Positions 2,193-23,484 of a stretch of 64,000 nucleotides of DNA are shown in pieces (the first letter of the stretch is position 1; each line of letters opens with the position of its first letter). The DNA comes from a virus. The position numbers were made by a program, and so were the translations under genes. A model generated the notes under the pieces. That model did not search any database. It was not told the DNA's origin and saw nothing but the letters and a program-made list of their open reading frames with translations. The DNA lies in IMG/VR virus record IMGVR_UViG_3300002835_000026. The stretch is one strand, 5' to 3'.

Positions 2193-2199
2193 GGAAAGA

Positions 2200-2960: not shown

Positions 2961-2998
2961 AATTTTTTAATGGATTTTATGGGTTAAGTTTATATATA

Positions 2999-3029
2999 TA
3001 AATATACAAAGATATTTTAAAGATCCAAA
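2999..3029 (-). promoter_or_regulatory. Bipartite promoter TTTGG-N18-TATATTTA
   Basis: One of five copies with conserved spacing; resembles the Bacteroidota -33/-7 consensus. Confidence 0.55.
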
Positions 3030-6000
3030 TTAAAATTTATTTTTTCTTAATTCTATCAACTCTTCTAATTTATATTCATTTTCTTCTACTGGCCAATCAT
3101 ATAGTGTACTATCTATACCTTTATGTAACACACCACCAGGTACACATAATATAAAATTTTGTTTTCCTTGAGCACCTGGTGATTTAGGATTCCAATATGT
3201 TAATTCCCAATCTAAACCTGCGTTCCAAGATGAATTAACTTGTGGATTATTATGTTGACTATCTAAATGAATAGGCATCATATCTTTAATATCTTTAGCT
3301 CGCATAACCATATGTCCTGCTCTACATGATCCTTTTACACATAAATTTCCAAATTGAGTTTCAAGCCATCCTAATTCACCATGTTCTTTACTCATATAAC
3401 CTGTAGCTACATATCTATCAGGATAAGTATTTAATATATCACAATATGTACTTATTGGTTCATTAAATAAATTGTCTTGATCTGTAAACTGAATAAAATC
3501 ATAATCATCAATATTCATGTTATCAAACATTTGAAGCATAGCTCCTCGTTGACCCATATTAAATTCTGAACTATACACTGTAAAATTATTATTTATATTT
3601 TCATTAATAACTTTTAATATTTCTTCTTTATTCTCTGGATTTGAGTTATCAACAATATAAATGTCATTTATAATACCTGGTTCTTGGATATCTTTTAATG
3701 AATTAATAATATTTTTAATATGGTGAGATCTATTAAATGATGTTAATAAAGTAAGTACTTTAGTTGGTTTAAGTAATTTAGGTAAAATATTAATTTCAAA
3801 ATCATTAGCTATTTTTTCCCAAGAATAATTTTCTCTAACATAGTCTGAATTTTCTTTTAGTACTCCACTTTTAACAATTGAATCATAATTATCATAAATA
3901 TGTTTCATATGTTTTATTAAATCTTTAACATTTGGCTCACCCCATTCTCCTTTAAACCATGGATGATTTTTAACTGATACTGATTTAGTAGAAACATTAT
4001 AGTATCTATCTTTAATTAATTCAGTTGAACCTGGTTCTGATGTAGCTATAGTTGGTAAACCACAAGCTATAGCTTCTAATATAGTCATTCCAAATGAATC
4101 ACCCCTAGATGGATAAACATAAGCATGACAACTTCTATATAAGTCCATTACTTTATCATGTCCATCATTACTAATATGCCAAAATATATTTTTATGATCT
4201 TTTATAATATTTTTTACTTCTTGACTATTGTAAAATAACATAGAGTCATTTGACTTAATGTGTAATTCTACATTATTATTATTTTTAAATAAATCAATAA
4301 AAGCTTCTAAAGTATGAAATATACCTTTTCTGTCTGAACATTCTCCTACATATAAGAACTTAAATTTGTCTTCTTTAATTTTAGGAGTATAAGTGAATAC
4401 TTTAGGATCAATACCATGAGGTACTACAAATATAGGTTTAGTAACACCCATATTTTGTATTCTTGTTTTTGATATATTAGATGGTGTTAATAAAAAATCA
4501 GCTTTATTCCCATTAACTACAAAATTACCAGCTTCATCTGTTGTGTCAACACCAGTATAAACTACTTTAGTTTTAAATTCATCTAAATGACCTATTGAAT
4601 CCGGATAAGCAAACATAATACCTAAATCAGTATTTAATGGCTTTTTTAATAAATTATGAACTAATTGATTTTTTGTTTCTGTTACTCCAATAATAGGTTT
4701 ACAAGCTAAATTTATGTTATTATCTAATTGTTCTAATAAACGTTGAGATAAAATTCCCATTGATGCATAATCATCATATTTAGCTAACCAAGTTAATTTA
4801 GGTTTATTATTAGCAATAATATTAGCTGTTTTATTATTAGTTAATGATTTAATTAAAGTATCAATATTCATACTTGGTGTACATTCATATACATGAGCTA
4901 CTTTAATTATTTCTTCATCAAATCTAATTTTTTCAAATTCATCTCCTGAATGGTTAACTATAATAATTACTTCATCTAAGTTTAAGTGCTTTTGAATATC
5001 TTTATAAGGTAAATCTTTTAATACTTTTACTTGAGTAGAATCCATTAACTTTTTACATTTACTTAAATTATATTTTACTATACCTGATGTTTTGTCTGGT
5101 TCTAATAATTTAAATGACTCTCCTTGTTTATGGATTAAAGGAAATGTAACTCCTGGATTCCATTGGTTATTATCCATATAACAAATATATCCTAAATTAT
5201 AGCCATTATTTTGTACTCTGTAAGATATTTCAACATCATCTGAGTAGCCTAATCCAAATCCTTCATCTAATAAGCCTATTTTATTTATCACTGATTTTCT
5301 AATTACTGAGCAGCAACCTAAAATATAATCACCTACTTTAACAGGACCTATAAGACCATTACTTTTATCTTTAAGTAAAGGTAATAATAATTCTTCCCAA
5401 TTTGAATGTAAATTAGCATCACTATTTAAACACATTATGTTTTCATTTTTAGCTAATTTAAAAGCTTCATTTACTGCTTTTACAAAACCTAATGCTTCTT
5501 TTTTAATATATAATTCAATTATAGGATTAGTAGCAGCAAATGCTTCTAATTTTTTATTTCCTTCTTCTTCAGTTCCGTTAGAATAAAGAATTACTTGGTT
5601 AATTATAGTTGATGTACCTAAAGTAATATTAACATTATTAATAGTATCATCTACATTATTATAAATAGGTACTACTAAAGTTAAATCAGGTTTATCTTCT
5701 TTTTTTTTTGAATAATCAATATAACCTATACCAGCAAATCCTCCTTTATTATATGTAAATTCATAAAAGAAAGGTAATGATTTTTGATCTAAAAATTGAG
5801 TATAAATAAATTCTACAAATCCGTATTTTTCTTTTAATTCTTCCCAGAATGTAGAAACAAAACAATTTGCTTCTCTATGGAAGTAACTATTGATAATATC
5901 ATGAAATCCTACTAATGCCGTAGGTGCTAAGAATTTTTCATATAATTCAAAATCACCTTTAACTCCTTCATAAGTATGATCACCATCAATAAATAAGAAA

Positions 6001-7178
6001 TCTATTTTTTGACCATTTAGTAATTCTTCTACTCTATCAATTAAATAAGAATCTTTTGAATTACCATTAACTGCGTAGAATTTTTTATTATATAAATTAG
6101 CTTGTTCTAAAGCGTCTGATATTACATATGTTCTTTCTTCAAAACCTTGACCACCATGAATTCCAATTGGATAATCAACACTAATAACAGTTTCAACTGA
6201 TGGTAATTCTAACCATCTAGATAATGTACCTCCATTAGCTGTACCAATTTCTACTACTACTTTAGGTTCATGTCTTGCGACAGTTAATTGTAAATTTTCA
6301 ATTTCTAAAGCAATTTGCATTGAACCTTCTTTTCTTAATTTAGATTGAAGCTTTAATGGTAATCTATTAAATGTATTTCTAAAGAAAATTTCATGTCTAT
6401 AAAATTCTATAGGAAACTCATCTGATATTTCTTTATAGTGTTTAGTAGGACACTCTGGTCTTTCAAAAATATCAGTACCATTGTATATACGTTGTTTAAT
6501 TTTTTCTAAATTAGAATATTCAGGTGTGTTATATTCTCTATGAGAAAAATTTAAAATTTTAGTTTGTATTTTTTCTGGTGTCATAAAAAATGATAAATGA
6601 TATCCTCCATTTTCTATATTAGGGCAATTAAAAGCATATTGTCTTAAATCATTAAACATGTTAACTTCTTTTAAAGTACTATTATTTATCCCTACAGAAG
6701 CAAAACAATCTATTAATAATTCAGTTAATGGAGAATAATAAAAAGTTTTCATTTTAAATGAGACCGCTTCTAATGTTTTATCTTTTACAATATTCCAAGC
6801 GTTATCAAATAATTCTTTTTTAGGAAATTCGTCAACTCCTGAAAGAAGAATAAAGCAATCATCATCTGATATTTCTAATGCTTTTTTTCGTAGACATTCT
6901 ATTTGTTGTATTTCTAAATGCCATTTGTCTTCTATACTTTTATTTAAATCATCTTCTGTTGGTTCATACACAACATAATGAATTTTATCTTTATACTCAT
7001 CAAATAGATAACTATTTGAAGAATATGTTAATTCTTTAAGATTACCTGTTGTTGTTCTTGTACTTTCAGCTATAACAAAATATTCAACTGAGTCATTTAG
7101 ATAATCTAATCTCATTTTTAACATTTCTAATTCATCATTGAAAAGAAAAGTATCAATTACTTTATAATTTTTATTCAT
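3030..7178 (-). CDS. Multidomain glycosylation enzyme: GT17-like + class I SAM methyltransferase + GT2-like + GT4-like + GT-A-like
   Basis: DTFLFNDELEMLKMRL..FVIAES (GT17-like); VVEIGTANGG and FLFIDGDHTYEGVKGDF (Methyltransf_24-like); LVVPIYN..CLNSD..GYSDDVE (GT2); HGIDP..FLYVG..RKG..YVYPSRGDSFGMTILEAIACGLP (GT4); LLTSFNR..IVDNS..FTDQD (GT-A). Confidence 0.85.
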   Translation of the reverse strand: MNKNYKVIDTFLFNDELEMLKMRLDYLNDSVEYFVIAESTRTTTGNLKELTYSSNSYLFDEYKDKIHYVVYEPTEDDLNKSIEDKWHLEIQQIECLRKKALEISDDDCFILLSGVDEFPKKELFDNAWNIVKDKTLEAVSFKMKTFYYSPLTELLIDCFASVGINNSTLKEVNMFNDLRQYAFNCPNIENGGYHLSFFMTPEKIQTKILNFSHREYNTPEYSNLEKIKQRIYNGTDIFERPECPTKHYKEISDEFPIEFYRHEIFFRNTFNRLPLKLQSKLRKEGSMQIALEIENLQLTVARHEPKVVVEIGTANGGTLSRWLELPSVETVISVDYPIGIHGGQGFEERTYVISDALEQANLYNKKFYAVNGNSKDSYLIDRVEELLNGQKIDFLFIDGDHTYEGVKGDFELYEKFLAPTALVGFHDIINSYFHREANCFVSTFWEELKEKYGFVEFIYTQFLDQKSLPFFYEFTYNKGGFAGIGYIDYSKKKEDKPDLTLVVPIYNNVDDTINNVNITLGTSTIINQVILYSNGTEEEGNKKLEAFAATNPIIELYIKKEALGFVKAVNEAFKLAKNENIMCLNSDANLHSNWEELLLPLLKDKSNGLIGPVKVGDYILGCCSVIRKSVINKIGLLDEGFGLGYSDDVEISYRVQNNGYNLGYICYMDNNQWNPGVTFPLIHKQGESFKLLEPDKTSGIVKYNLSKCKKLMDSTQVKVLKDLPYKDIQKHLNLDEVIIIVNHSGDEFEKIRFDEEIIKVAHVYECTPSMNIDTLIKSLTNNKTANIIANNKPKLTWLAKYDDYASMGILSQRLLEQLDNNINLACKPIIGVTETKNQLVHNLLKKPLNTDLGIMFAYPDSIGHLDEFKTKVVYTGVDTTDEAGNFVVNGNKADFLLTPSNISKTRIQNMGVTKPIFVVPHGIDPKVFTYTPKIKEDKFKFLYVGECSDRKGIFHTLEAFIDLFKNNNNVELHIKSNDSMLFYNSQEVKNIIKDHKNIFWHISNDGHDKVMDLYRSCHAYVYPSRGDSFGMTILEAIACGLPTIATSEPGSTELIKDRYYNVSTKSVSVKNHPWFKGEWGEPNVKDLIKHMKHIYDNYDSIVKSGVLKENSDYVRENYSWEKIANDFEINILPKLLKPTKVLTLLTSFNRSHHIKNIINSLKDIQEPGIINDIYIVDNSNPENKEEILKVINENINNNFTVYSSEFNMGQRGAMLQMFDNMNIDDYDFIQFTDQDNLFNEPISTYCDILNTYPDRYVATGYMSKEHGELGWLETQFGNLCVKGSCRAGHMVMRAKDIKDMMPIHLDSQHNNPQVNSSWNAGLDWELTYWNPKSPGAQGKQNFILCVPGGVLHKGIDSTLYDWPVEENEYKLEELIELRKNKF

Positions 7179-7187
7179 TTTATATTT

Positions 7188-8036
7188 TTAATTATCATGG
7201 ATATTATTTAATTCTATTACACTATTATTTAAATGGTATTTTTTAATAGATTCACTTGTTGATAAAAATCTTTCAGAAAATCTATCTCCTCGTCTAGGTT
7301 CTATTATAATTTTTTCTCTATTTGGATATAAATCATTAGCTACATCTATCATACTTCTACTATGTCCTGAATTAACTATAAATCGTGATTTATTAGGATA
7401 ATTCATAGTATATATAATTAAACCTATAGCTTCTCCTAATGATATAAAATGTCTTTGGCATGTAGGAGCTACTTTAATTGGAGAATCTAGAGATAATGAA
7501 TTCCATATTTCAAATACATTTCCTGATGATTCAACAACATTAAAAAATCGAGCTATACTTCCTCCATTATTTAATACCATTCGTTCCGCTATTAATTTTG
7601 AAGCTCCGTATACAATTTCAGGATTACAAGATTTACAAGTAGAAGTTAATATAATTTTACAATTAAGAGGCATACAATCTATTAAATTTTTTGTTCCTAT
7701 AGTATTAATAGATAAAGTTTCCCAAGTTTCATGTTCACCTTTAGGAGCATGTTTCGCTCCAGCAATATTAATAATAATATTAGGTTGAAATTTATTTAAT
7801 ATTGTTTTGACTTGATTAAAATCAGTTATATCCATATACTCCATATCTCCTTCTATATCAGTAGCTAAATAAGATACTTTATCTTTATCAAATTTTTTAC
7901 AAAGTGCAGTTCCTATACTTCCATTAGCTCCTGTAATAAGAATTTTTTGTTTTTTATTTTTTAATTTAATATTAAGTAAATCAATATATTGATTTCGTCC
8001 TAATACTTTTTCTACATCATTATAACTTATTTTCAT
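7188..8036 (-). CDS. NAD-dependent nucleotide-sugar dehydratase/epimerase (CapD/Polysacc_synt_2-like)
   Basis: ILITGANGSIG Rossmann motif, AGAKH, YGASK, RFFNVVESSGNV, R.GD. Confidence 0.85.
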   Translation of the reverse strand: MKISYNDVEKVLGRNQYIDLLNIKLKNKKQKILITGANGSIGTALCKKFDKDKVSYLATDIEGDMEYMDITDFNQVKTILNKFQPNIIINIAGAKHAPKGEHETWETLSINTIGTKNLIDCMPLNCKIILTSTCKSCNPEIVYGASKLIAERMVLNNGGSIARFFNVVESSGNVFEIWNSLSLDSPIKVAPTCQRHFISLGEAIGLIIYTMNYPNKSRFIVNSGHSRSMIDVANDLYPNREKIIIEPRRGDRFSERFLSTSESIKKYHLNNSVIELNNIHDN

Positions 8037-8646
8037 CTGTTAAAAAATTAAATTTAATTATTAAATTATTTAAATATTCTTTATTTATATTATTTCTTTC
8101 TAAACCTATAGTATTTTCTTTTAAAAATCTAGATGGAGATCCTATGTAAATATTTCCAGGTTCAATTTTAGAATTTTTAGTTACAATTGTTCCCATTCCT
8201 ATCATAGAATAAGCTCCTATTATTTTAAATTGATGACATATACTTCCTAATCCCATATTTACTCCTTCCATTATGTAACTATGCCCTCCTATTAATACAT
8301 TACAAGATAAATTAACTTTATTTTCTATAATAGAATCATGACCAATATGACTATTTCTTAATATAATAGTATTATTTTTTAATATTGTATTTCTTATTGT
8401 GCCTGCGTTTATAGTTACAAATTCTCTAACTATATTATTATTACCTATAATAACATTAAACGCACTATTAGTAAAATAATCTCTATGTTCTGGTGGTGTA
8501 CCTATAGAACAATAGGCTTCAAATCTATTATTATCTCCTATTATAGTATCTCCTGTAATGTAACAATAAGGACCAATATAATTATTTTCTCCTAAAGTAA
8601 CATTTTCTCCTATAATAGCTGTAGGATGTATTAAATTATTTTTCAT
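8020..8646 (-). CDS. Left-handed beta-helix acyl/acetyltransferase, LpxA-like
   Basis: IHPTAII hexapeptide repeats; IGNNNIVREFVTINAGT, HIGHD, GGH and HQF match LpxA signature positions. Confidence 0.8.
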   Translation of the reverse strand: MKNNLIHPTAIIGENVTLGENNYIGPYCYITGDTIIGDNNRFEAYCSIGTPPEHRDYFTNSAFNVIIGNNNIVREFVTINAGTIRNTILKNNTIILRNSHIGHDSIIENKVNLSCNVLIGGHSYIMEGVNMGLGSICHQFKIIGAYSMIGMGTIVTKNSKIEPGNIYIGSPSRFLKENTIGLERNNINKEYLNNLIIKFNFLTDENKL

Positions 8647-9943
8647 TTATAATTTTTAAAACGTTTTCTAATTTAATTAAATTCATACATTCTTTTCTTT
8701 CTGGTTGTTGTAGGTCCATCCACCATCTTCTATTGTAATAATTTTTACCACAATTTTTTTCAATATATTTCACTCCAGGATGTTTAGCATGGTTATTATA
8801 GAATGGGGTTAAACAAATACCTACATTTGGTTTAACAGAAGAAGCAAAATGATGAAAAAATGTATCTACACTTAACCATAAACTTGATTCATCTATTAAT
8901 CCTGCTAACTCTGCTATTGATTTATCTAAAAATTTACTATCTACTCCACCAGGAGAAAATGACATTGGGAATTGATTATCATTACTTGAACCTACTTGTA
9001 TAACATGATATCCTAATTTTTTTAACTCAAATATTAAATTAAACCACCTAACTTCAACCCAGTCTTTATTTGAATCTTGATTTTGGATTCTAGCTGCTGA
9101 AGGGCAGATTAATACTAATGGTTTACCGGTTGTGTTTTCAAATTTAATTTTAGGACCTGTATAATTTAATATATCTTGAGATTCTCGATTTTCTCTATAC
9201 ATTTTAAAAAATGCTTCTATAATTGTAGGAGAATTATGAGCTGATCCATAAGAATAAACAAATTTTTTATATCCTCCAAATAATTCATCATTCCAAGATA
9301 TAAAACCTTTAATATTAATATGTTCTAAAGCAAATGGATAAATACAAGATACATAACAATCTTTACCTATTTTTTCTAATAATGGGTACGCCATAACATG
9401 ATCTCCTAATCCACCATCAACATGTATTATTCTTTCATAAAATAATGGATTAATTATTTTTTTATTATATCTTTCTGAGTCTGGTGTATTATCAGATGTA
9501 AAAGGGTATTTAGTTTTTTGAGTAATTAAATCTGCTATAAACCACCTTATAGATTGATATTTGGTATCATGATTAAGGTATAATAAATCACTAGTTTTTG
9601 CTAATAAATAAGTATTATTCAATGTATCCCACTCTTTAACGCCAAAATAACCATCATTTTCATCTATCAATAAACAATACTCTGTTTCAATGTTATATAT
9701 AAGTTCTATAGTAGATTGAAGTATATTACTTAAAGTAGGGTTAATAAAATAACTATGATAAGCTAAAGTTGTTAATTTATTTAGTAAATTTTGATTAGTC
9801 CAAGGAGTATATCCCTTACAATTAATTTGTAAAGTTTTAATTTGGGATTTAATTGGATCATTATGTAATTTATCTAATAAAGATATTAGTTTTTCTTCAT
9901 TTTCTGTATGAATTATAACTGTTATTTCTTTTTGTAACTCCAT
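8636..9943 (-). CDS. GT9 (heptosyltransferase-like) glycosyltransferase, paralog 1
   Basis: GGLGDHVMAYP, K.W...W, VIQVG, LAGLI...SVDTFFHHFASS. Confidence 0.8.
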   Translation of the reverse strand: MELQKEITVIIHTENEEKLISLLDKLHNDPIKSQIKTLQINCKGYTPWTNQNLLNKLTTLAYHSYFINPTLSNILQSTIELIYNIETEYCLLIDENDGYFGVKEWDTLNNTYLLAKTSDLLYLNHDTKYQSIRWFIADLITQKTKYPFTSDNTPDSERYNKKIINPLFYERIIHVDGGLGDHVMAYPLLEKIGKDCYVSCIYPFALEHINIKGFISWNDELFGGYKKFVYSYGSAHNSPTIIEAFFKMYRENRESQDILNYTGPKIKFENTTGKPLVLICPSAARIQNQDSNKDWVEVRWFNLIFELKKLGYHVIQVGSSNDNQFPMSFSPGGVDSKFLDKSIAELAGLIDESSLWLSVDTFFHHFASSVKPNVGICLTPFYNNHAKHPGVKYIEKNCGKNYYNRRWWMDLQQPERKECMNLIKLENVLKIINEK

Positions 9944-9944
9944 T

Positions 9945-11279
9945 TTAGCTATTAGTTTTTAGTTTTATAGCTTTTAATATATCATCTACTTGGATTAGTT
10001 CTAAACTTTCTTTTCTTTCTGGTTGTTTAAAGTCAAATAACCATCTTCTATTATGATAGTTTTTACCACAATCTTTTTCTATATAAGTTACTTTAGGATG
10101 TTTTACATAATCATTATAAAAAGGAATTAAACAAATTCCTGTCTCTGGTTTTATTGAAGCTGCAAATGGATGTAAAAAAGTATCTACTGTTATCCATAAA
10201 CTGGCTTCTTCAATTAATCCTGCTAATTCAGGAATAGATTTATCTAAAAATTTTTCATCTACACCAGCTTGACAATAAGGAGAATTAGAATCAAATGATA
10301 ATGGGATTTGGTCATCTTTATGTGAACCGGTTTGAATAACATGATAACCTAATTTTTTTAATTCAAATATTAAATTAAACCATCTAACATCAACCCAATT
10401 TTTATTAGATTCAAATCCTTGTACTCGTGCTGCTGTGTTGCCTACTAAAACTATAGGTTTGCCTGATATATTATTGTATTTAATTTTTGGGCCGTTATAT
10501 TTCATAACGTCTGTTTTTTCTTTTGGTATATTATACATTTCAAATAATGCATTTACTAAATTGGGTAAATCATTTACTAAACCATAATCATAAATAAATC
10601 TATGATATCCTCCAAATAAATCATCATTCCAATCAATTAAACCCTTAGTGTCAATATGATCTAAAACAAATGGGTATATACTACTAACAAAACACTTTTT
10701 TCCTATTTTTTCTAATAGTGGATATGCCATAACATGGTCACCTAATCCACCATGTACATGAATTATTCGTTCATAAAATAAAGGATGATCTATTTTTTTA
10801 AAATATCGTTCTGAATCTGAGGTGTTATCTAGATTAAATTTATGCCTTGTTTTTTGACTAATTAAATCTGCTATAAACCATGTTATATGTTGGTAATTAG
10901 TGTCTTGATTACAGTGTAATAAATCCGTAGTTTTCGCTAATAAATAGGTATTATTAAGTATATCCCATTCTTTAACGTTAAAACATGTATTAGATTCATC
11001 TATTATTAAAACATAATTAGTTTTAATTTTATAAATAAGATCTATAAGAGATAATACAGGTGATGATGAGGTTGGTTGTATACTATAAAAAGAACTAGTA
11101 AGTGTTGATATTTTATCTAGTATAGTTGGATTAGTCCAAGGAGTAATACCTTTACAATTAACTTGTAAAGTATTAAATTGAGACTTTAAGGGATGTTGAT
11201 GTAATTGATTTAATAAAGTTAATAACTTAGTTTCATTCTCTGTATGAATGATAACTGTTATTTTATCATTTTTGGTCAT
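9945..11279 (-). CDS. GT9 (heptosyltransferase-like) glycosyltransferase, paralog 2
   Basis: GGLGDHVMAYP, KNWVDVRW, TVDTFLHPFAAS; collinear with the adjacent paralog. Confidence 0.8.
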   Translation of the reverse strand: MTKNDKITVIIHTENETKLLTLLNQLHQHPLKSQFNTLQVNCKGITPWTNPTILDKISTLTSSFYSIQPTSSSPVLSLIDLIYKIKTNYVLIIDESNTCFNVKEWDILNNTYLLAKTTDLLHCNQDTNYQHITWFIADLISQKTRHKFNLDNTSDSERYFKKIDHPLFYERIIHVHGGLGDHVMAYPLLEKIGKKCFVSSIYPFVLDHIDTKGLIDWNDDLFGGYHRFIYDYGLVNDLPNLVNALFEMYNIPKEKTDVMKYNGPKIKYNNISGKPIVLVGNTAARVQGFESNKNWVDVRWFNLIFELKKLGYHVIQTGSHKDDQIPLSFDSNSPYCQAGVDEKFLDKSIPELAGLIEEASLWITVDTFLHPFAASIKPETGICLIPFYNDYVKHPKVTYIEKDCGKNYHNRRWLFDFKQPERKESLELIQVDDILKAIKLKTNS

Positions 11280-11299
11280 AACTTAATTGTATTTACTAA

Positions 11300-11331
11300 T
11301 AAATATAATAACTTGGTTTTAGATATCCAAA
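11300..11331 (-). promoter_or_regulatory. Bipartite promoter TTTGG-N19-TATATTTA heading the glycosylation operon
   Basis: Conserved motif and spacing, 20 nt upstream of the ATG at 11279. Confidence 0.6.
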
Positions 11332-11337
11332 TTTAAA

Positions 11338-12057
11338 TTAATTAAATTCAAATCTCCATTTAAATCCACCACCAGTTGATCCTGTAAATGAAGCAGTTGG
11401 TTCAGGACCTTGGGCCGCGTAATTAAGATTATAAGTAGTACCGTCGAGGATTGGGTTTATATTAAATATAGTTTGTTCTCCATTACCATCATTTGCATCA
11501 CAGAGTCCACGCATACTTCCAGTTAATACACTTCTATAATCACAATAAAAATCTAAAGTCCAATAACAATTTTGAACATTAGGTGTTTGATCTGTAGATA
11601 ATAATAGTGGACCAATAATATTAAGTCCTGGACCATTAAGATCTGCTTGGTAATCTGAAACTAAAGTAGTTGTTGTAAGTGAATCTGTAATTTTAAAAGT
11701 TACATCAGTTATAGTATCTGATCCTCCAAATAATACATCAATATCATATTGTACACTGTAATTAGGGAAAACACCTGGATCATTACCTTCACAGGTTCCT
11801 AGTAAATCATAAAATTTTCCAAGAGATTGAGTAGTATTTTGTTGTCTAGTACCACATAATCTATTAGCATAATTATAAGATCCACTAGAACCCCAACCTG
11901 TATAAGGATATGTATTATTACCATATGGTCCTTTAGGCCATGATTCTTTCATAAAAACACTAGCTGACACGTTAGTACCAGGAGTTAATCCTAAATTTGC
12001 TGAGTCAAGTACATCATTATATGAAATTGTACTTCCTGAAGATGGCGTTACTCCCAT
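11338..12057 (-). CDS. Fibre-associated protein (possible tip/adhesin)
   Basis: Directly downstream of the fibre gene; N-terminus MGVTPSSGSTISYNDV resembles small proteins that follow S74-containing fibres; rich in G/S/T/Y. Confidence 0.55.
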   Translation of the reverse strand: MGVTPSSGSTISYNDVLDSANLGLTPGTNVSASVFMKESWPKGPYGNNTYPYTGWGSSGSYNYANRLCGTRQQNTTQSLGKFYDLLGTCEGNDPGVFPNYSVQYDIDVLFGGSDTITDVTFKITDSLTTTTLVSDYQADLNGPGLNIIGPLLLSTDQTPNVQNCYWTLDFYCDYRSVLTGSMRGLCDANDGNGEQTIFNINPILDGTTYNLNYAAQGPEPTASFTGSTGGGFKWRFEFN

Positions 12058-12059
12058 AA

Positions 12060-15000
12060 CTATTTATTTTTAAGTTGTTCTTCTAAATTATTTACTTTAT
12101 CATTTAATTCTTGAATAGCTGCTACTAATAATGGTACTATTTTTTCGTATTGTACTGTTAAGTAATTTTCACCTGATTTACTAGTTGTATTTCCGTCATT
12201 ATCTAAAATATTAATATCAAAAGGAGCTGGTTTTACTACTTCAGGTAATACTTTTTGTAAATCCTGAGCTATAACACCAACTTGTCTTTCTGGGTGTTTA
12301 ATTTGCATTAAATTATCAGCTAATTCATTTTGGTAATAAGTTACTGCTCTTAATGAATTAACTTTACTTAAAGCATTATTAATTGGTTCTAGTCCTTTTT
12401 TAAGTCTTTCATCTGAATAGTAAGCTACTACATCACCTGCCGCGTAAAGAGCTCCAGATGAATATATATAATATCCACCTGACGTTTCAATATATCCTGA
12501 TACACTTAATGTTGTACCATTAAATGTCATGTTTTGTTCAGCATTTATTGTAGAAGAATTTACTGATGTTATAACACGGTTATCAGCAGCACCAGTATAA
12601 GATGTTATACCAGCACTTGCTCCTGATGTACCTGAAGCACCTGATGCACCACTTGTTCCTGAAGCACCTGAAGTTCCTGATGTACCTGATGCACCACTTG
12701 TTCCTGAAGCACCTGAAGTTCCTGATAAACCTGAAGTACCGCTTGCACCTGAAGCACCTGATGTACCTGATGCACCACTTGTTCCTGAAGCACCTGAAGT
12801 TCCTGATGTACCTGATGCACCACTTGTTCCTGAAGCACCTGAAGTTCCTGATAAACCTGAAGTACCGCTTGCACCTGAAGCACCTGATGTACCTGATGCA
12901 CCACTTGTTCCTGAAGCACCTGAAGTTCCTGATGTACCTGATGCACCACTTGTTCCTGAAGCACCTGAAGTTCCTGATAAACCTGAAGTACCGCTTGCAC
13001 CTGAAGCACCTGATGTACCTGATGTACCGCTTGCTCCTGATGTTCCTGAAGCACCTGATAAACCTGAAGTACCGCTTGCACCTGAAGCACCTGATGTACC
13101 TGATGTACCGCTTGCTCCTGATGTTCCTGAAGCACCTGATAAACCTGAAGTACCACTAGCTCCTGAAGCTCCACTTGTACCTGACGCACCTGATGTACCT
13201 GACGCACCTGATGTACCTGATGTTCCTGAAGCACCTGATGTTCCGCTTGCTCCTGATATACCTGATCCGGCTACTAAACTCCAATATGTTCCGTTTGTAG
13301 GGACTATGTTTTCACTTCCTAATATGTTTATATAAGAACTTCCATTGTATGAAACAACATTGTTTGGAATGTATGAAGTTCCAGCATTGTAAGCACCTAA
13401 CCAAATTAAACCTATACCTGAACGACCTGATGTACCTGAGGCACCTGATGCACCACTTGTACCTGAAGCACCTGATGTACCTGATGTACCTGAAGCACCA
13501 CTTGTTCCTGAAGCACCTGATGTACCACTTAAACCTGATGTTCCGCTTGCGCCTGAAGCTCCTGATGTACCTGATGCTCCTGATGTTCCTGATGCTCCTG
13601 AAGTTCCACTTAAACCTGAAATTCCTGATGTACCTGATGTTCCACTAGCACCTGAAGTTCCTGAAGCACCACTTGCCCCTGATGTTCCTGAAGCACCACT
13701 TGTACCTGAAGCACCTGAAGTTCCTGATAAACCTGAAATACCTGATGTACCTGAAGTTCCACTAGCACCTGAAGTACCACTTGTTCCTGATGCGCCACTT
13801 GTACCTGAAGCTCCTGAAGTACCGCTTGCACCTGATATACCAGACCCAGCTACTAATTGCCAATATGTTCCATTTGTAGGGACAACTCCTTCGCTTTGTA
13901 ATATGTTTATATAAGAACTTCCATTGTATGAAACAACATTGTTTGGAATATAAGTTGTAGCGCCATTATAAGCACCTAACCAAATTAAACCTATACCTGA
14001 GCGACCTGATGTTCCTGAGGCGCCTGAAGCACCTGATGTACCTGAAGCACCACTTGTACCTGAAGCACCGCTTGTACCTGAAGCACCTGATAAACCTGAG
14101 ATACCTGAGCGACCTGATGTTCCTGAAGCACCACTTGCACCTGAAGTTCCTGAAGCACCTGATGTACCTGATAAACCTGAAGTGCCACTTGCACCTGAAG
14201 CCCCTGATGTACCGCTTGCACCTGATGTTCCTGAAGCACCTGATAAACCTGATGTTCCTGAGGCGCCACTAGCTCCACTTGTTCCTGAAGCACCTGATGT
14301 ACCTGAAGCACCTGATAAACCTGATGTTCCTGAGGCGCCACTAGCTCCACTTGTTCCTGAAGCACCTGATGTACCTGAAGCACCTGATAAACCTGATGTT
14401 CCTGAGGCGCCTGATGCACCACTAGTTCCTGAAGCTCCACTTGTTCCTGAAGCACCTGATAAACCTGATGTTCCTGAGGCGCCACTAGCTCCACTTGTTC
14501 CTGATGCACCACTTGTTCCTGATGCGCCTGATGTACCTGAAGCACCTGATGTTCCGCTTGCTCCTGATATACCGGACCCAGCTACTAACTGCCAATATGT
14601 TGGGTTTGTAGGGACTATGTTTTCACTTCCTAATATGTTTATATAAGAACTTCCATTGTATGAAACAACATTGTTTGGAATGTATGAAGTTCCAGCATTG
14701 TAAGCACCTAACCAAATTAAGCCAATGCCTGAACGACCTGATGTTCCTGAAGCACCTGAAGCTCCACTTGTACCTGAAGCACCTGATGTACCTGATGCTC
14801 CTGATGTACCACTTAAACCTGATGTTCCGCTTGCGCCTGAAGCTCCTGATGTACCTGATGCTCCTGATGTTCCTGATGCTCCTGAAGTTCCTGATGCTCC
14901 TGAAGTTCCACTTAAACCTGAAATTCCTGATGTACCTGATGTTCCACTAGCACCTGAAGTTCCTGAAGCACCTGATGTACCACTTGCACCTGATAAACCT

Positions 15001-18000
15001 GAAATACCTGAACGACCTGATGTTCCTGAAGCTCCTGAAGCACCACTTAAACCTGAAGTTCCTGAAGCACCACTTGCACCTGATGTTCCTGATGCTCCAC
15101 TTGTACCTGAAGCTCCTGATGTACCTGATAAACCTGAAATACCTGATGTACCTGAAGTTCCACTTGCTCCAGAAGCACCACTTGTTCCTGATGCGCCACT
15201 TGTACCTGAAGCTCCTGAAGTACCGCTTGCACCTGATATACCGGACCCAGCTACTAAACTCCAATATGTTGGGTTTGTAGGAACAGTTGCTTCACTTTGT
15301 AATATGTTTATATAAGTACTTCCATTATATGAAACAACATTATTAGGAATATAAGTTGTAGCACCACTATAAGCACCTAACCAAATTAAACCTATACCTG
15401 AGCGACCTGATGTACCTGAAGCACCTGAAGCACCACTTGTTCCTGAAGCACCTGAAGTTCCTGATGCACCTGATGTACCACTTGCACCTGAAGTTCCACT
15501 TAAACCTGAAATTCCTGATGTACCTGATGTTCCACTAGCACCTGAAGCACCACTTGTACCTGAAGCACCTGATGTACCTGATGCGCCACTTAGTCCTGAG
15601 ATACCTGAGTTTCCTGATGTACCGCTTGCGCCTGAAGCACCTGAAGTACCGCTTGCGCCTGAAGTACCTGAAGCACCACTTAGGCCTGAAATGCCTGAGT
15701 TTCCTGATGTACCGCTTGCGCCTGAAGCTCCACTTGTACCTGAAGCACCTGAAATACCTGATAAACCACTTATACCTGAACGTCCTGAAATACCTGATCC
15801 TGCCACTAATGACCATGAACTTGGTGTATCTGATGGAGCTGCATCATTATTATTATTTAAAGCTATATAAGAACTTCCAAGGTATGATACTAAGTCATTT
15901 GTTTGATAATTTGTAGCACTACTCCAAGAACCTTCCCAAATTAGACCTATACCTGAAAGACCAGATATACCACTTAGACCTGAGATACCTGAGTTGCCGC
16001 TTAAGCCTGAAATACCTGAGTTACCTGATGTACCTGAAGCACCACTTAAACCTGATATACCTGAGTTACCTGATGTACCTGAGGCGCCACTTAGACCTGA
16101 GATACCTGAGTTGCCGCTTAAGCCTGAAATACCTGAGTTACCTGAAGCGCCTGATGTACCACTTAGACCTGAAATGCCACTTAAACCTGAGATGCCTGAG
16201 TTACCTGATGTACCTGAAATGCCTGATAAACCTGAAATACCGCTTAAACCTGATATACCTGAGCGACCTGAGATGCCTGATCCTGCTACTAAACTCCAAT
16301 ATGTTGGTGATTCGTTAGGTGATTGGTCTAAACTATTTTGTATCGCTATATATGTGTTTCCAAGGTATGATACTAAATCATTAGTTTGATAGTTTGTAGC
16401 ACTACTCCAAGAACCTTTCCAAATTAGACCTATACCTGAAAGACCTGAAATTCCGCTTAAACCTGATATACCACTTAGACCTGAAATGCCTGAGCGACCT
16501 GAAATACCGCTTAGACCTGAAATTCCTGAAATACCAGAAATACCACTTAAACCAGATATACCTAAAATTCCTGATAAACCTGAAATACCTGAGCGACCTG
16601 AGATGCCTGAAGCCGCTACTAGTTCCCAATATGTTGCATTTGTAGGTAAATTATTTAAGTTGCTATTTGTAATTGATATATAAGAACTTCCATTATATGA
16701 AACTAAATCATTAATGTTATAAGTTACTTCAAAATCCCATCCTCCTGCTTTCCAATATAAACCTATACCTGATAAACCTGAGCGACCTGAAGTACCAGAT
16801 AAACCTGATATTCCTGATAAGCCTGATATACCACTTAGGCCTGAGGTACCTGATAAACCTGAAATACCTGAGTTACCTGATAAACCTGAGATGCCACTTA
16901 GGCCTGAGATGCCTGAATTACCACTTAAGCCTGATATACCTGAAAAACCTGAAAGACCACTAACTGCTATAATAGACCAATATGTTGGTTGAGCTGATGG
17001 AGTAGCGCTAATATTACTATCTTGTAAAGAAATATAAGAACTTCCTTGATAATAAACTATATCATTTATATTATATAAAGTAAATGCATCCCAAGTACCT
17101 TCCCAAATTAAACCTATACCTGATAAACCTGAAATACCTGAGCGACCTGATGTTCCTGAAGCACCTGAAATGCCTGAAATGCCACTTAAACCTGATAAAC
17201 CTGATATACCACTTAGACCAGAAATACCTGATATGCCACTTAATCCTGAAATACCTGAGCGACCTGAATCTCCACTTATACCTGAAAGTCCTGAATTACC
17301 ACTTAGTCCTGATATACCTGAGATGCCTGAAAGACCAGATATACCTGAACGACCTGAGTTTCCATCAGTACCACTTAATCCTGAAATACCTGAGTTACCA
17401 CTTAAACCTGAAATACCTGATAAGCCTGATATGCCACTTATACCTGATAAACCAGATAAACCTGAAATTCCACTTATACCTGATAAACCTGAAATACCTG
17501 ATAAGCCACTTATACCTGAAATTCCTGATAATCCACTTATACCTGAAATACCGGATATACCACTTAATCCTGAAATGCCGCTTAAACCTGATATTCCTGA
17601 AATACCACTTAAACCTGAAATTCCTGATATACCACTTAAACCACTTACACCTGAAATACCTGATAAACCTGATTCACCGCTTAAACCTGATATTCCTGAA
17701 ATACCACTTAAACCTGAAATACCGCTTATACCTGATAAACCTGATAGACCAGATGTACCGCTTAAACCAGATGTGCCTGAGAGTCCTGAAATACCAGAAA
17801 GACCTGATATACCTGATATACCTGATATACCACTTAGACCTGAGGTACCTGAAATACCTGATAAACCACTTTCACCACTTAATCCTGAAATGCCACTTAT
17901 ACCTGATAAACCAGATAGACCTGAATCGCCACTTAAACCTGAAATGCCACTTAATCCGCTTATACCTGAAAGTCCTGATAAACCTGATTCACCACTTAAT

Positions 18001-21000
18001 CCACTTATACCTGATAAACCAGATGTACCTGAAAGACCTGATGTACCTGATAAACCACTGATACCTGATGTACCACTTAAGCCTGAGGTACCACTTAAAC
18101 CTGAAAGACCAGATTCACCACTTAAGCCTGAGGTACCACTTAAACCACTTATACCTAAATTACCTGATAAGCCTGAAATACCACTTAAACCTGAAATTCC
18201 TGATAAACCTGATAAACCTGATTCACCACTTAAGCCTGATATTCCTGAAAGTCCTGAGATGCCACTTAGTCCTGAAATACCGCTTATACCTAATAATCCT
18301 GAAATGCCTGATGTACCTAAAAGTCCTGATATTCCTGACTCACCGCTTAATCCTGAGATGCCACTTAATCCACTTATGCCTGAAGTACCTGATAAACCTG
18401 AAATACCTGATGTACCGCTTAAACCACTTATACCTGATAAACCTGATAAACCACTTTCCCCTGATAATCCTGAGATGCCACTTGTACCTGACAAGCCTGA
18501 AATTCCGCTTAATCCTGATAAGCCACTTTCGCCTGATAAACCTGAAATACCTGAAGTGCCACTTAAACCTGATGTACCTGATAAGCCTGAAAGTCCTGAG
18601 ATGCCTGAAGTACCACTTAAACCTAAAATACCACTTATGCCTGATATGCCACTTAATCCACTTATACCTGATGTACCGCTAAGGCCTGATAAGCCACTTT
18701 CGCCTGAAAGACCTGATAAGCCTGAAAGTCCTGATATACCTGATGTACCTGATAAACCTGAAATTCCGCTTGTACCTAAAAGTCCTGATAAGCCACTTTC
18801 GCCTGATAATCCTGAAATACCTGATGTACCACTTAATCCACTTATGCCGCTTAAACCTGAAATACCTGATGTACCACTTAATCCACTTATGCCGCTTAAA
18901 CCTGAAATACCTGAGTCACCGTTTAGACCTGAAGTACCTGATAAACCACTAATTCCACTTAAACCTGATGTACCACTTAATCCTGAAATGCCACTTATAC
19001 CTGATAAACCTGAAATACCTGAAAGTCCTAAGGTACCACTTAATCCACTTATACCTGAAGTTCCTAATAAACCTGAAATTCCTAATATACCGCTAAGACC
19101 TGATAATCCACTTTCGCCTGATAATCCTAAAATACCACTTATACCTGAAATACCTGATACACCACTTAAACCTGAAATACCGGAATCACCATTTAAACCT
19201 GATATACCGCTTAAACCACTTATACCTGAGATGCCACTTAGGCCTGAAATTCCTGAAAGACCTAATATTCCTGATTCACCACTTAATCCTGAGATGCCTG
19301 ATAAACCAGAAACACCTGATAGACCTGATAAACCGCTTATACCTGATAGACCTGAAGTACCACTTAAACCTGAAAGTCCTGAGTCACCGTTTAAACCTGA
19401 TATGCCTGAAAGACCAGATACACCATTTAATCCGCTTACACCTGATATTCCTGATAAGCCTGATATACCGCTTGTACCTGATAAGCCAGAAATGCCTGAA
19501 GTACCTTCTAAACCTGATATGCCTGAAAAACCTGAAATACCGCTTAATCCTAAAATACCTGAGATGCCTGAGATGCCTGATAAACCACTTAATCCAGATA
19601 AGCCACTTTCACCATTTAAACCTGAAATACCACTTAAACCTAAAAGTCCTGAAATACCTGATGTACCGCTTAAACCTGATAAACCTGATTCACCACTTAA
19701 GCCTGAAATACCACTTAAACCTGAAAATCCTGATGTACCGCTAAGACCTGATATACCTAAAAGTCCTGAAATACCTGATGTACCGCTTAAACCTGATAAA
19801 CCTGATTCACCACTTAAGCCTGAAATACCGCTTGTGCCTGATAAACCTAAAATACCTGATAAACCACTTTCACCACTTAAACCTGATAAACCTAAGATAC
19901 CTGAAATACCATTTAAACCAGAAATACCGCTTGTTCCTAACAATCCTGAAACCCCACTTAAACCTGAAAGACCTGATGTTCCTGAAAGACCTGATATACC
20001 ATCTATACCAGAAAATCCTGATAAACCGCTTAAACCTGAGGTACCTGACATACCTGAAAGTCCTGATATACCTGATGTACTTATACCACTTAAACCAGAT
20101 AAACCGGAAAGTCCTGAAGTTCCATCTATGCCTGAAAGACCTGATATACCGCTTAAACCTGATGTACCTAATAAACCTGAAAGTCCTGATGAGCCGCTTA
20201 ATCCTGAAAGACCTGAGTCTCCATTTAATCCTAAAATACCACTTATACCACTTAAACCTGAAATTCCTGAGTCACCGTTTAGACCTAAAATTCCTGATAA
20301 ACCTGAAATACCAGACAATCCTAAAATACCAGATAGGCCTGAAGTACCACTTAGACCAGAAATACCTGAATCTCCAATATTACCATTTGTACCACTTAAT
20401 CCTGAAATACCTGATGTGCCATTTAAACCTGAAATACCTGAATTTCCAATTAAACCAGATATACCTGAAACTCCTTCTAAACCTGAAATACCTGAAGTAC
20501 CATTTGTACCTGATAAGCCACTTATACCTGACTGACCTAATAAACCTGAAGTGCCTTCTAAACCTGAAATTCCTGAAGTACCGTTTGTACCATTAGTACC
20601 ACTTAAACCAGAAATTCCTGAATTACCTAAAAGTCCTGAAATACCTGAAGCTCCTTCTAAACCTGAGATGCCTGAAATACCATTTATACCTGAAATACCT
20701 TCTAAACCTGATATTCCTGAAGTTCCATTTGTACCATTTGTACCTGAAAGTCCTGAAATACCACTTAATCCTGAAGTACCTAAGATACCACTTAATCCTG
20801 AGATGCCTGAGTCACCATTTAGACCTAACAAACCTGATAAACCACTTATACCTGAAGTTCCTAATGTACCTGATAAACCTGAAAGTCCTGATGTACCTTC
20901 AAGACCTGAAAGACCGGATGTACCATTTGTTCCATTTGTTCCTGATAAACCAGATAAACCTGAAGTTCCTAATGTACCTGATAAACCTGATAAACCTGAT

Positions 21001-22628
21001 GTACCATTTAATCCACTTAAACCTGATGTACCTTCAAGACCTGAAAGACCTGAAGTTCCGTTTGTACCGGATAAACCACTTAGACCTGAAGTTCCAGTGC
21101 CACTTAAGCCTGATAAACCACTTGTGCCTTCTAAACCACTTAGACCTGAAGTACCATTTGTACCACTTGTTCCTGATAAACCTGAGAGACCTGATGTACC
21201 AGTACCACTTAATCCACTTAGACCAGATATACCTTCTAAACCTGAAAGTCCTGAGGTACCATTTGTTCCTGATAAACCTGAAAGTCCTGAGGTACCATTT
21301 GTACCATTAGTTCCTGAGAAACCACTTATACCAGATAAACCACTTATACCTTCTAAGCCACTTATACCTGATGTACCAATTGTACCACTTAATCCACTTA
21401 TACCTGAAGTTCCAGTTCCACTAAGACCTGAAAGACCAGATGTACCTTCTAAACCAGATAAACCTGATAAGCCTGATAAGCCTGATAAGCCTGATAAACC
21501 AGTTCCTGAAAGACCAGATAAACCTGAGGTTCCAGTACCACTAAGACCTGAAAGTCCTGAAAGTCCTGTTCCACTAAGACCAGAAATTCCTGATGTACCT
21601 TCTAAACCTGATAAACCTGAAATTCCGTTTATACCTGATAAACCGCTTAAACCAGAAGTGCCAGTACCACTTAAACCTGAAAGTCCTGATGTACCTAATA
21701 TGCCACTTAGACCTGATGTACCTTCAAGACCTGAAAGACCGGATGTACCATTTGTTCCTGATAAACCTGAAAGTCCTGAAGTACTAGTACCACTAAGACC
21801 TGAAAGACCAGATGTACCTTCTAAGCCTGAAAGACCAGATGTACCATTAGTACCATTAGTACCTGAAAGACCTGAAAGTCCTGATATACCTGTACCACTT
21901 AGGCCTGATAAACCACTTAAGCCTTCTAAACCTGAGAGTCCTGAGGTACCATTTGTACCATTAGTTCCTGATAAACCACTTAGACCTGATGTACCAGCTC
22001 CTGACAAACCAGATAAACCTGAAGTTCCAGTACCACTAAGACCTGAAAGTCCTGATAAACCTTCTAAACCAGAAAGACCTGAAGTTCCATTAGTTCCTGA
22101 AAGACCGCTCAAACCAGAAGTTCCTGTTCCACTTAAACCACTTAGACCTGAAGTTCCTGTACCACTTAAACCAGATAAACCACTTATACCTTCTAAACCT
22201 GATAAACCTGAGGTACCATTAGTTCCTGATAAACCGCTTAATCCTGAGGTGCCAGTTCCACTTAATCCTGATAAACCTGAAGTGCCAGTACCACTTAAAC
22301 CTGATAAACCTTCTAAACCTGAAAGTCCTGATGTACCATTTATTCCTGATAAACCACTTATACCAGATGTTCCAGCGCCACTTAGTCCTGAAATACCTGA
22401 TGTACCTGTTCCTGATAAACCTGAAATACCTGAGGTGCCAGTACCACTTAAGCCTGAAATACCTGAGGTGCCAGTACCACTTAAACCTGAAAGACCTGAT
22501 AAACCTGAAAGTCCAGATGTACCAATTCCACTACTACCTCCTGAAGTAGGTACTTCAAAAGAAGCTATAGATACTTGATCTAAAAATCGTACATTGTTTC
22601 TTGGTATGGAGTTATTGATTCTGGCCAT
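12060..22628 (-). CDS. Giant fibre protein (3522 aa): Gly-X-Ser repeats, 8 Trp/Tyr-rich CBM-like modules, C-terminal Peptidase S74 intramolecular chaperone
   Basis: Nearly continuous (G-[LITA]-S)n; modules GLIW.G.W/Y...Y..ND/N.V.Y.GSSYI...P...YW; C-terminal [20 protein letters not shown]...[31 protein letters not shown]. Confidence 0.9.
12620..22530 (-). repeat. 9-nt-periodic coding repeat (Gly-X-Ser), including near-perfect 126-bp and 72-bp tandem units
   Basis: cctga/ccact recurs every 9 nt on the + strand; a 126-bp unit starts at 12721, 12847 and 12973; a 72-bp unit repeats around 14240-14480. Confidence 0.95.
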
Positions 22629-23484
22629 ATTGTATTTCGTTTGTTGGGTTTGTTATTGTTGATTCTAAATTTATAATTATTTTACTCTTACTTGAAAATT
22701 TCTTGATAGAGTTTAAATCTTTTTGTAATACTTCTGGAACTATATAACCATATACTTTAATATTAAAAGTACTTCTAACTAATCGTTCAGCGTCATTTTG
22801 TAATTCTGTTACTGTATTAAATGTATCAATACGAGTTTGGAATTGAAATTGTTCTGGGTTACCCCAATACGCATCTGAAGCATATTCAATTGCTTCTACT
22901 ATTTTATTTAATTGTTCTACATAGTAAGTAAATACTACACAACTATAAGTTAATGTTAAGTAATCAGGTACTACTGAAGCATAATATGTAGTAGTTGGTA
23001 TTCTGTTAGTTAAAACATTAAAATTACTATATATATTACTTGGAGAGTATTGTTTTTCTGTTACTGTATAGTTGTTAGGTCTATTAGCATCTAATTTATT
23101 AGCTACAGTCCTATTTTTTTCTATACTATCTCTTTTAAACATAATAAGTGGAGCCATAATAGCACCGTTTACATCTCTATAATAACCATCCTTTTGATAT
23201 GATTTCCATTTTTCAGGTGAACCATATATAACAGGAACTTCTATTCTTTCTTCATTTTGCACTACAAAAGGTTTAATAACATTTTGAAAATAATACATAA
23301 TAGCTCCATCAATATCTTGAAGACTAATACTAAATGGTTTAGTATTATCATTTCTAAAAGAAGTTTGTGTAGCTCTATTAGGATTATTAGACTTATTAGG
23401 GTTACCTCTTTCAACATCAAAAGGTACTTGTTGATCTACAAGTATCTCTTTTTGTGTTTTAGGTATAGGTATTCTTCCAGCCAT
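22612..23484 (-). CDS. Tail completion / sheath stabiliser (T4 gp15-like)
   Basis: [26 protein letters not shown]; position after the neck genes. Confidence 0.7.

Follow-up and report, generated by a model that had tools for sequence, protein, structure and literature searches.

A fibre cassette in an uncultured T4-like myovirus links proline-free Gly-X-Ser collagen-like fibres with a phage-only glycosyltransferase family and a candidate O-glycosylation system

Positions 3030-22628 of the viral record IMGVR_UViG_3300002835_000026 (64,000 nucleotides, one strand; this whole stretch is called the window) encode a giant collagen-like fibre and, behind it, a set of glycosyltransferases (GTs). The region is considered to be the fibre cassette of a T4-like myovirus, with the GTs probably acting as a cytoplasmic O-glycosylation system for serine-rich, proline-free collagen-like fibres. 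The sequence anatomy of the fibre, the folds of the enzymes and the genomic linkage of the two across phages are established here. A phage-only enzyme of the cassette, composed of a GT-A and a GT9-fold domain, is found with such fibres in unrelated phages too, so this phage probably puts a sugar coat on its own fibre; the gene linkage further suggests O-glycosylation of the repeat serines at multiple sites. All genes of the window lie on the minus strand at a G+C content of ~28%; PHROG matches include a T4-type major head protein, portal, large terminase, PhoH and primase, and the head protein shares 55% identity with its counterpart in Flavobacterium phage vB_FspM_immuto (immuto). Judged by this gene content, the source is an uncultured T4-like myovirus.

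The giant Gly-X-Ser fibre

The giant fibre is a 3522 aa protein encoded at 12060-22628 (-), as defined by its open reading frame (ORF), Pfam matches and a triplet count. Counted by regular expression as runs of at least four G-x-x triplets, the protein holds 943 Gly-X-Y triplets in 23 runs, the longest of which spans 329 triplets. Ser occupies the Y position of 837 triplets (88.8%), followed by N (34), L (28), G (20) and E (18); the X position features L (308), T (235), I (205) and A (124). Gly recurs at every third residue as in collagen, and the Pfam Collagen family (PF01391) scores 1131 bits; the imino acids of a collagen repeat are missing, as none of the 943 triplets has Pro at X or Y and all 25 Pro of the protein lie in inserts and termini. 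These counts bear out a preliminary description of the fibre, which had reported Gly at every third residue, Ser at nearly every Y position and essentially no Pro in the repeat.

From its N-terminus the protein begins with an anchor of ~35 aa (22524-22628, -), followed by zone A (aa 36-514; 21087-22523, -) with ~14 one-residue breaks of the G1G type. Zone B (residues 515-1839; 17112-21086, -) is a near-continuous Gly-X-Ser stretch containing the longest run; in zone C (residues 1840-3338; 12615-17111, -) repeat blocks alternate with eight CBM5/12 modules, and a C-terminal domain (12063-12614, -) completes the chain. The breaks of zone A, of the Gly-X-Gly type, are spaced ~10-13 triplets apart and nearly stop past aa 515, which suggests a zone of regular kinks or flexibility. 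CBM_5_12 scores 86.9 bits against a Pfam cut-off of 26.2; the eight inserts, each of ~48 aa and located by pattern, extend from aa 1839 to 3120.

The C-terminal domain contains a Peptidase_S74 intramolecular chaperone (12231-12416, -; aa 3405-3466; Pfam 50.3 bits, cut-off 22). Both the domain and a cleavage motif are present, and autocleavage is predicted at Ser3405, between YY and SDERLKK; this agrees with the consensus Ser-Asp-x-Arg-x-Lys at the start of the domain. The fibre may be a whisker or a tail fibre: its gene follows the neck genes like the whisker gene wac of T4, yet its last 186 aa are similar to the distal parts of the long tail fibres from KVP40- and S-SRM01-type phages. The N-terminal ~30 residues are conserved in the fibres that follow the p290 homologue in two related loci, L008 and L009. 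In L008, a close relative, the fibre is divided into two genes (442-4602 and 4657-9003), an N-terminal anchor half and an S74-bearing distal half; the fibre of L009 is a single protein, as in the window.

Collagen geometry places successive residues 0.286 nm apart, at which the repeats of the giant fibre would extend ~810 nm if fully helical. The DNA repeats within the ORF have a 9-nt period and are 60-87% identical; as they are degenerate, the ORF is not a collapse of perfect repeats, and an assembly artefact is ruled out by this degeneracy and by homologous fibres on many contigs.

Linkage of Gly-X-Ser fibres to glycosyltransferases

Loci related to the window (L001-L020) were fetched through the GT-A/GT9-fold enzyme, 19 of them being informative; in 16 of these 19 the enzyme is paired with a Gly-X-Ser fibre located just upstream, and another such fibre is often found downstream, before the sheath gene. 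The order of genes is conserved across L001-L020: p406-p182-p290, one or two Gly-X-Ser fibres, small variable genes, the GT9-fold gene, a multi-GT gene, p88, p144, the second fibre, p83 and the sheath. Immuto shares the flanks p406-p182-p290 and p83-sheath with the window, and the region between these flanks contains fibres of an unrelated kind, with no Gly-X-Y ORF and with none of the cassette GTs; since the same flanks occur with neither component, the fibres and GTs behave as one exchangeable cassette.

The pairing was also sought in a sample drawn without reference to GTs. A DNA pattern of four G-[LIVFM]-S(TCN) triplets retrieved 118 loci from IMG/VR. An ORF of 40 or more triplets, with Ser in no less than 75% of the Y positions, is present in 47 of them; these 47 Gly-X-Ser loci are mostly contigs of 42-52% G+C with F, Y or I at X. 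Cassette-type GTs are present in 26 of the 34 loci that have at least 1.5 kb downstream, and are adjacent to the fibre in 16; at the level of clusters, they lie near 20 of 26 Gly-X-Ser fibre clusters. The control was a pattern of five G-P-X triplets, which gave 82 loci with collagen-like ORFs low in Ser; such a GT occurs in one of the 82 loci, or one of 48 clusters, and the signature enzyme in none (20/26 vs 1/48 clusters; Fisher p ~7e-12). The GT link is specific to Ser-at-Y, Pro-free fibres. Six clusters are GT-negative, of which L037 has a GT pair elsewhere on its contig and three represent the second fibre of the window's own lineage. Short G-[FL]-S runs of 7-22 triplets were also seen in three IMG/VR contigs labelled as giant-virus metagenome-assembled genomes (L060, L066, L078). 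As a test of its proposal, the preliminary description had asked whether (GxS)n fibres and GT clusters occur together in phage genomes; the outcome is strongly positive in both samples, and its view that the fibre and the glycosylation genes form one unit is borne out.

In other lineages the fibre is followed by a fusion of GT2 and methyltransferase, a GT-A protein of ~322 aa and an ORF of ~146 aa. A hidden Markov model (HMM) of the window's enzyme family matches C-lobe ORFs of 146-180 aa in 24 Gly-X-Ser loci and in no control locus. The ~322 aa protein ends with the GGxGDH start of the N-lobe, albeit in a short, low-probability alignment, and in L051 and L077 it also matches the GT-A part of the HMM. 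Given the C-lobe matches and the GGxGDH end, the ~322 aa and ~146 aa pair looks like a split form of the window's enzyme; as the sole component common to all cassettes, the GT-A/GT9-fold enzyme is the best candidate for the fibre-directed transferase.

The phages that carry this pairing differ in virion type. Contigs of the L025 type, which carry the pairing, have an HK97-type capsid 75% identical to that of Caulobacter phage RW; in RW itself, neither a Gly-X-Y ORF nor a cassette GT is present over the 14 kb that follow the capsid gene. The Methylophilaceae phage P19250A (KX815270.1) is a cultured siphovirus with a complete 38.7 kb genome and a lambda-J-type tail protein. Its gene product P19250A_0023 (KX815270.1 21390-24995; 5363-8968 of locus L258), annotated as 'tail length tape-measure protein', is a 1201 aa Gly-X-Ser collagen-like fibre with 281 triplets, 80% Ser at Y and Y, I, F or A at X; it is followed by a SAM methyltransferase, a GT-A gene that is the only GT2 match of the genome, and a GT9 C-lobe gene. 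The pairing is thus found in at least two, and probably three, unrelated virion backgrounds: T4-like myoviruses, RW-type-capsid contigs and siphovirus P19250A. No discussion of the fibre or the GTs was found in the literature on P19250A, and a tblastn search of INPHARED with a pure repeat segment found nothing, as expected from the low-complexity filter.

In L004 (133-2877) and L005 (253-1161) three Ser/Thr-rich paralogues of ~300 aa, which are not Gly-X-Ser fibres, lie upstream of a 748 aa GT9-fold fusion and may be alternative acceptors; in L017 (486-2480) two paralogues with long poly-Gly or Gly-rich tracts are followed by a 1270 aa ORF containing the GT9-fold domain. That phage GTs can glycosylate the C-termini of capsid and tail-tube proteins is established from mycobacteriophages (Freeman et al. 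2023, as cited in PMC12619734). Together with the adjacency of the enzyme to Ser/Thr-rich paralogues in L004 and L005, this would agree with GTs whose chief targets are other components of the virion (capsid, tail tube or decoration proteins, for example) and not the fibre. This explanation is considered improbable, as it accounts neither for the repeated and specific adjacency to Gly-X-Ser fibres across capsid types nor for the joint absence of fibres and GTs in immuto and RW.

The GT-A/GT9-fold enzyme family

The window carries two copies of the signature enzyme. Paralogue a (444 aa; 9945-11279, -) has a weak RfaQ match (3.7e-5) and no Pfam match; paralogue b (435 aa; 8636-9943, -) matches PF01075 at 24.5 bits against a cut-off of 22, and the two are 63% identical. 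An AF2 model built from 29 homologues (pLDDT 90.9) divides paralogue b into a GT-A domain (aa 1-165; 9449-9943), which aligns with GlfT2, PcManGT and WrtF at Z 10-12.5, and a GT9-fold GT-B domain (aa 169-435; 8639-9439). The best matches of the GT-B domain are all GT9, namely 3tov (Z 18.0), WaaF (17.9), TibC (17.1) and WaaC (16.1), and are effectively tied; CAZy GT9 structures (3tov, 1psw, 4rb4, 6dfe) score Z 16-18, and the next class reaches at most 13. As regards ADP-heptose as a possible donor, no heptose pathway genes were identified in the window. The preliminary description had listed the pair as two GT9s; the GT9 fold holds, and the enzymes belong to a family of their own, in which a GT-A domain is fused to a GT9-fold domain, and are not ordinary lipopolysaccharide (LPS) heptosyltransferases.

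Homologues of the family form 99 clusters, all metagenomic; no member was found in INPHARED, and no relative in 185,579 prokaryote genomes (one per species) within the reach of a pattern search. The family has been seen in phage-type contigs alone, and the failure to find it in the prokaryote genomes argues against the enzyme being a recent host-derived LPS gene. Some members are fused to methyltransferase, GT2 or GT4 domains, which ties the enzyme to the neighbouring multi-GT.

By sequence, the only NCBIfam matches of the family are the LPS heptosyltransferase models (I and RfaQ), all weak (best 7.8e-6); sequence and profile searches of the PDB with the enzyme gave no glycosyltransferase match. 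Membership in the BAHT family (TibC/Aah) was considered and rejected, as 29 family members gave no match to TIGR04414 at E up to 0.1, the N-terminus is GT-A rather than a β-barrel, and the four-Cys iron finger is lacking. The N-lobe opens with an invariant GGxGDH motif, which may resemble the Gly-Asp motif that holds the catalytic base in WaaC. In the C-lobe, a loop-rich part (aa 364-419 of the 435 aa enzyme) contains a conserved Cys/His cluster (H364, H365, C377, H388, C398, C419); the cluster may be a metal site, comparable in position to the iron finger of TibC.

Relation to known glycosylation systems

TibC is a soluble GT9-fold enzyme that adds many sugars to serines, not threonines, of the long, repetitive, fibre-like adhesin TibA (PMC4358343; PDB 4RAP, 4RB4). 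The likeness to the TibC/TibA and Aah/AIDA-I systems lies in structure, where TibC aligns with the window's enzyme at Z 17.1 over 271 residues and ranks with its best matches; at the level of sequence, as seen with TIGR04414 and the PDB, no relationship is found. The N-terminus of TibC is a β-barrel whereas that of the window's enzyme is GT-A; TibC has a four-Cys iron finger whereas the window's family has three conserved Cys (C377, C398, C419) and His; and the acceptor of TibC is a β-helix, unlike the collagen-type repeat that is the candidate acceptor here.

The serine-rich-repeat adhesins are long Ser-rich fibres encoded beside soluble GtfA/GtfB and accessory GTs, which prime and extend an O-glycan in the cytoplasm. 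The cassette differs in its repeat type and in having no accessory Sec genes, and the GtfA model (TIGR02918) scores 28.4 bits, far under its cut-off of 574.6. BclA of the Bacillus anthracis exosporium and the cuticle collagen of Riftia feature Gly-X-Y repeats with an O-glycosylated hydroxy amino acid at Y; the Riftia helix is poor in hydroxyproline and is stabilised by the sugar. Those repeats contain Pro and use Thr, whereas the phage fibre is Pro-free, with Ser at Y, hydrophobic residues at X and up to 329 unbroken triplets. By analogy with glycosylated Thr in Riftia collagen, stabilisation of the Pro-free helix by sugar is plausible, and it is put forward here tentatively.

Among viruses, chlorovirus PBCV-1 (A064R) and Mimivirus use enzymes with several GT domains and a sugar O-methyltransferase on virion proteins, and giant viruses both encode and glycosylate collagen-like proteins; these are eukaryotic viruses, and the linkages are N-linked on capsid and hydroxylysine-linked on collagen. 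In mycobacteriophages, phage GTs modify the C-terminal tails of capsid and tail-tube proteins, according to the account of Freeman et al. 2023 (PMC10527164) given in PMC12619734. As is proposed for the window, those GTs are encoded beside structural genes and act in the cytoplasm on virion proteins of the phage itself; their targets are short C-terminal tails rather than the candidate hundreds of serines in a collagen-like fibre, and the enzyme families differ.

Collagen-like or fibre genes and GTs have been noted in the same islands of acI phages, where the GTs were assigned to DNA modification (PMC10202952), and of pelagimyophages, where they were assigned to O-antigen (PMC7029224). Searches of the literature on collagen-like phage fibres and GTs found both gene types noted and no paper linking them, and searches on Gly-X-Ser returned lipase motifs only. 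The preliminary description had been aware of no such system in a phage; in agreement, no report of a glycosylated collagen-like phage fibre was found in the literature.

Proposed fibre glycosylation and the rival of envelope modification

Several points weigh against glycosylation of the fibre, which is deduced from gene linkage. The GT9-fold domain sides weakly with the heptosyltransferase I and RfaQ models and never with the protein-modifying BAHT, and structural scores do not separate TibC from WaaF or WaaC; an LpxA-like gene combined with a GT9 fold also fits an LPS-directed role. The GTs of marine myophages sit in hypervariable host-recognition islands and are read as O-antigen modifiers (PMC7029224). 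Within the lineage, L004, L005 and L017 carry the enzyme with no visible Gly-X-Ser fibre, all three being cut within 2-4 kb upstream, and in the independent sample L052 and L053/L112 show no GT, these being partial contigs estimated to be 14-39% complete. The related contigs and clusters behind the counts are not phylogenetically independent samples, and GTs were detected with cassette-derived queries, which favours the cassette's own GT families.

The enzymatic points among these, and the pelagimyophage reading of host-recognition clusters, are shared with the main rival explanation: that during infection the GTs alter the LPS core, O-antigen or capsule of the host, thereby excluding superinfection or masking receptors, and stand beside fibres only because both occupy a hypervariable host-recognition island. 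The acyltransferase of the window, LpxA-like at E 1e-43, and an 88 aa membrane protein conserved with the cassette would suit such a role; the LpxA-like gene is, however, not conserved in the lineage, and the enzymes have no transmembrane segments. The GT9 fold and its weak sequence matches, which point to LPS heptosyltransferases, are to be set against the failure to find the family in the 185,579 prokaryote genomes. A shared island would not account for a link that holds for Ser-at-Y fibres specifically and is missing in Pro-type collagen-like fibres, which are likewise situated in fibre loci; nor would it explain the minimal cassette of P19250A, in which the sole GT2 match of the 38.7 kb genome directly follows the fibre. 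Envelope remodelling is thus considered unlikely, and glycosylation of the fibre is retained as the probable function of the cassette.

Expression context of the cassette

The element ATATTTATA occurs 13 times in the window, against 6.9 expected, and 12 of the occurrences are on the coding strand (-), at 947-955, 2184-2192, 2229-2237, 2997-3005, 25709-25717, 34089-34097, 36005-36013, 44691-44699, 47459-47467, 52825-52833, 53724-53732 and 60259-60267. Among the genes checked it precedes the sheath, the second fibre, p88 (the copy at 2997-3005) and the portal; a copy with one mismatch lies at 11299-11307, before the first GT. It is a candidate phage promoter element, distinct from the TATAAATA of T4; the T4 late-promoter consensus TATAAATA, sigma-70 scans and the Bacteroidetes TTTG/TAnnTTTG consensus showed no enrichment. 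The start of the giant fibre overlaps the end of p290, and this overlap together with the placement of ATATTTATA fits co-expression of the cassette with structural genes.

This placement bears on a further explanation: that the Gly-X-Ser repeat needs no modification to fold and function, and that the enzymes serve to produce a free or lipid-linked glycan or to modify phage DNA. The GT2, GT4 and methyltransferase domains are generic, and phage GTs often glucosylate DNA, as was the interpretation for acI phages (PMC10202952). The genes belong to the late structural block, where neck and sheath genes flank them, and they share their upstream motif with structural genes; no DNA-hypermodification genes are adjacent, and the linkage to one peculiar type of fibre would go unexplained. 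This explanation is accordingly held to be very improbable, and DNA glycosylation as the main role is rejected on account of the location of the genes among late structural genes.

Other genes of the cassette and its flanks

Behind the giant fibre the order of products is 239 aa, 444 aa, 435 aa, 208 aa, 282 aa, 1382 aa, 88 aa, 144 aa, the 308 aa second fibre, p83 and the tail sheath; the cassette genes are co-directional with gaps of at most 69 nt. The list of two GT9s, an acyltransferase, a sugar dehydratase and a multi-GT enzyme given in the preliminary description names the right members; it omits the 239 aa ORF, its GT9s are two-domain enzymes, and the acyltransferase and dehydratase are better described as LpxA-like and PseB/Polysacc_synt_2-like. 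The 239 aa protein (11338-12057, -), between the fibre and the GTs, has no Pfam, PHROG or NCBIfam match and no IMG/VR relative, and the Atlas offers weak viral leads; it may be a fibre-tip or assembly factor.

The 208 aa protein (8020-8646, -) is an LpxA-like left-handed β-helix acyltransferase with a Hexapep score of 72 bits; it falls below the NCBIfam cut-offs for LpxA (149 vs 226 bits for NF003657; 136 vs 231 for TIGR01852). The 282 aa protein (7188-8036, -) is an NDP-sugar 4,6-dehydratase-like SDR of the PseB/Polysacc_synt_2 type; it matches the broader PF02719 at 112 bits (cut-off 20) and lies below the PseB model TIGR03589 (69 vs 408 bits). The LpxA-like gene, the dehydratase and the duplication of the GT9-fold gene are absent from L001-L020; as the acyltransferase and dehydratase are seen only in this phage among the loci compared, they are considered accessories rather than core components.

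The 1382 aa multi-domain enzyme (3030-7178, -) combines a GT17-like domain (6459-7169), a SAM/rhamnosyl-O-methyltransferase-like domain (5895-6317), a GT2 (5049-5708) and a GT4 (3786-4589); its last ~250 aa (3033-3788) probably form a further GT2-like C-terminal domain, based on an Atlas lead. Searches with this enzyme returned generic GT4 matches and nothing closer; in L001-L020 the GT9-fold gene is followed by homologues of this enzyme, whose domain composition varies. No transmembrane segment was detected in any cassette enzyme. The 88 aa protein (2694-2960, -) has an N-terminal transmembrane segment and, like the 144 aa protein (2260-2694, -), is conserved with the cassette in closer relatives; a terminator-like hairpin lies at 2208-2229, after the 144 aa gene. 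The second, short Gly-X-Ser fibre (308 aa; 1244-2170, -) contains one CBM5/12 module; its homologues in relatives are 1100-1600 aa in length and directly precede p83 and the tail sheath gene.

The upstream flank (22612-25254, -) encodes p406, of head-completion or neck type, p182 and p290, with a match to phrog_211; homologues in the same order are found in immuto and L009. Outside the cassette, 55900-59283 encodes a 1127 aa multi-domain protein with a weak match of the cytidylyltransferase type; immuto has at a similar place, upstream of the terminase-head block, a gene annotated as an NadR-like NMN adenylyltransferase.

Proposed assembly and significance

Beyond the anatomy, folds and linkage, the identity of the acceptor and of the sugar, the formation of a triple helix and the function of the glycan are matters of inference. 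The 3522 aa chain and the small second fibre would be made late, in the cytoplasm; the fibres would trimerise from the C-terminal S74 chaperone, a trimerising domain that lends indirect support to a homotrimeric triple helix and would then cleave itself off at Ser3405, and the Pro-free Gly-X-Ser repeat would zip into a collagen-type rod of ~0.8 micrometre if fully helical. The soluble two-domain GT-A/GT9-fold enzymes are predicted to add sugar to the hydroxyls of the repeat serines, and the 1382 aa GT17-methyltransferase-GT2-GT4 enzyme to extend and O-methylate the glycan; in this phage the dehydratase and acyltransferase may supply a modified sugar. The resulting coat would cover the hydrophobic L, I, T and A residues at X, and may stabilise the helix, which is free of imino acids, or protect it. 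Extended beyond the window, a bolder and rather speculative form of this model would have unrelated aquatic phages build (Gly-X-Ser)n glyco-collagen, in which the phage-only enzyme, fused or split, would together with a methyltransferase and extender GTs glycosylate hundreds of serines, the sugars replacing hydroxyproline in a helix of up to several hundred nm.

Since the cultured phage P19250A carries a minimal cassette, the idea of a glycosylated fibre is directly testable. If it is true, phage virion glycosylation would extend from the capsid tails of a few mycobacteriophages to a fibre class of phages that are abundant in fresh and marine waters, and these fibres would represent a widespread class of virion glycoproteins that has gone unrecognised so far; many GTs annotated as modifiers of LPS or DNA would need a new reading, and the GT-A/GT9-fold enzymes would constitute a new family of protein O-glycosyltransferases, seen so far only in phages. 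The fibre would also serve as a natural experiment on whether a collagen helix without Pro can be held together by sugars, and, as it carries eight modules of chitin-binding type, would matter to phage ecology through host recognition and adhesion to particles.

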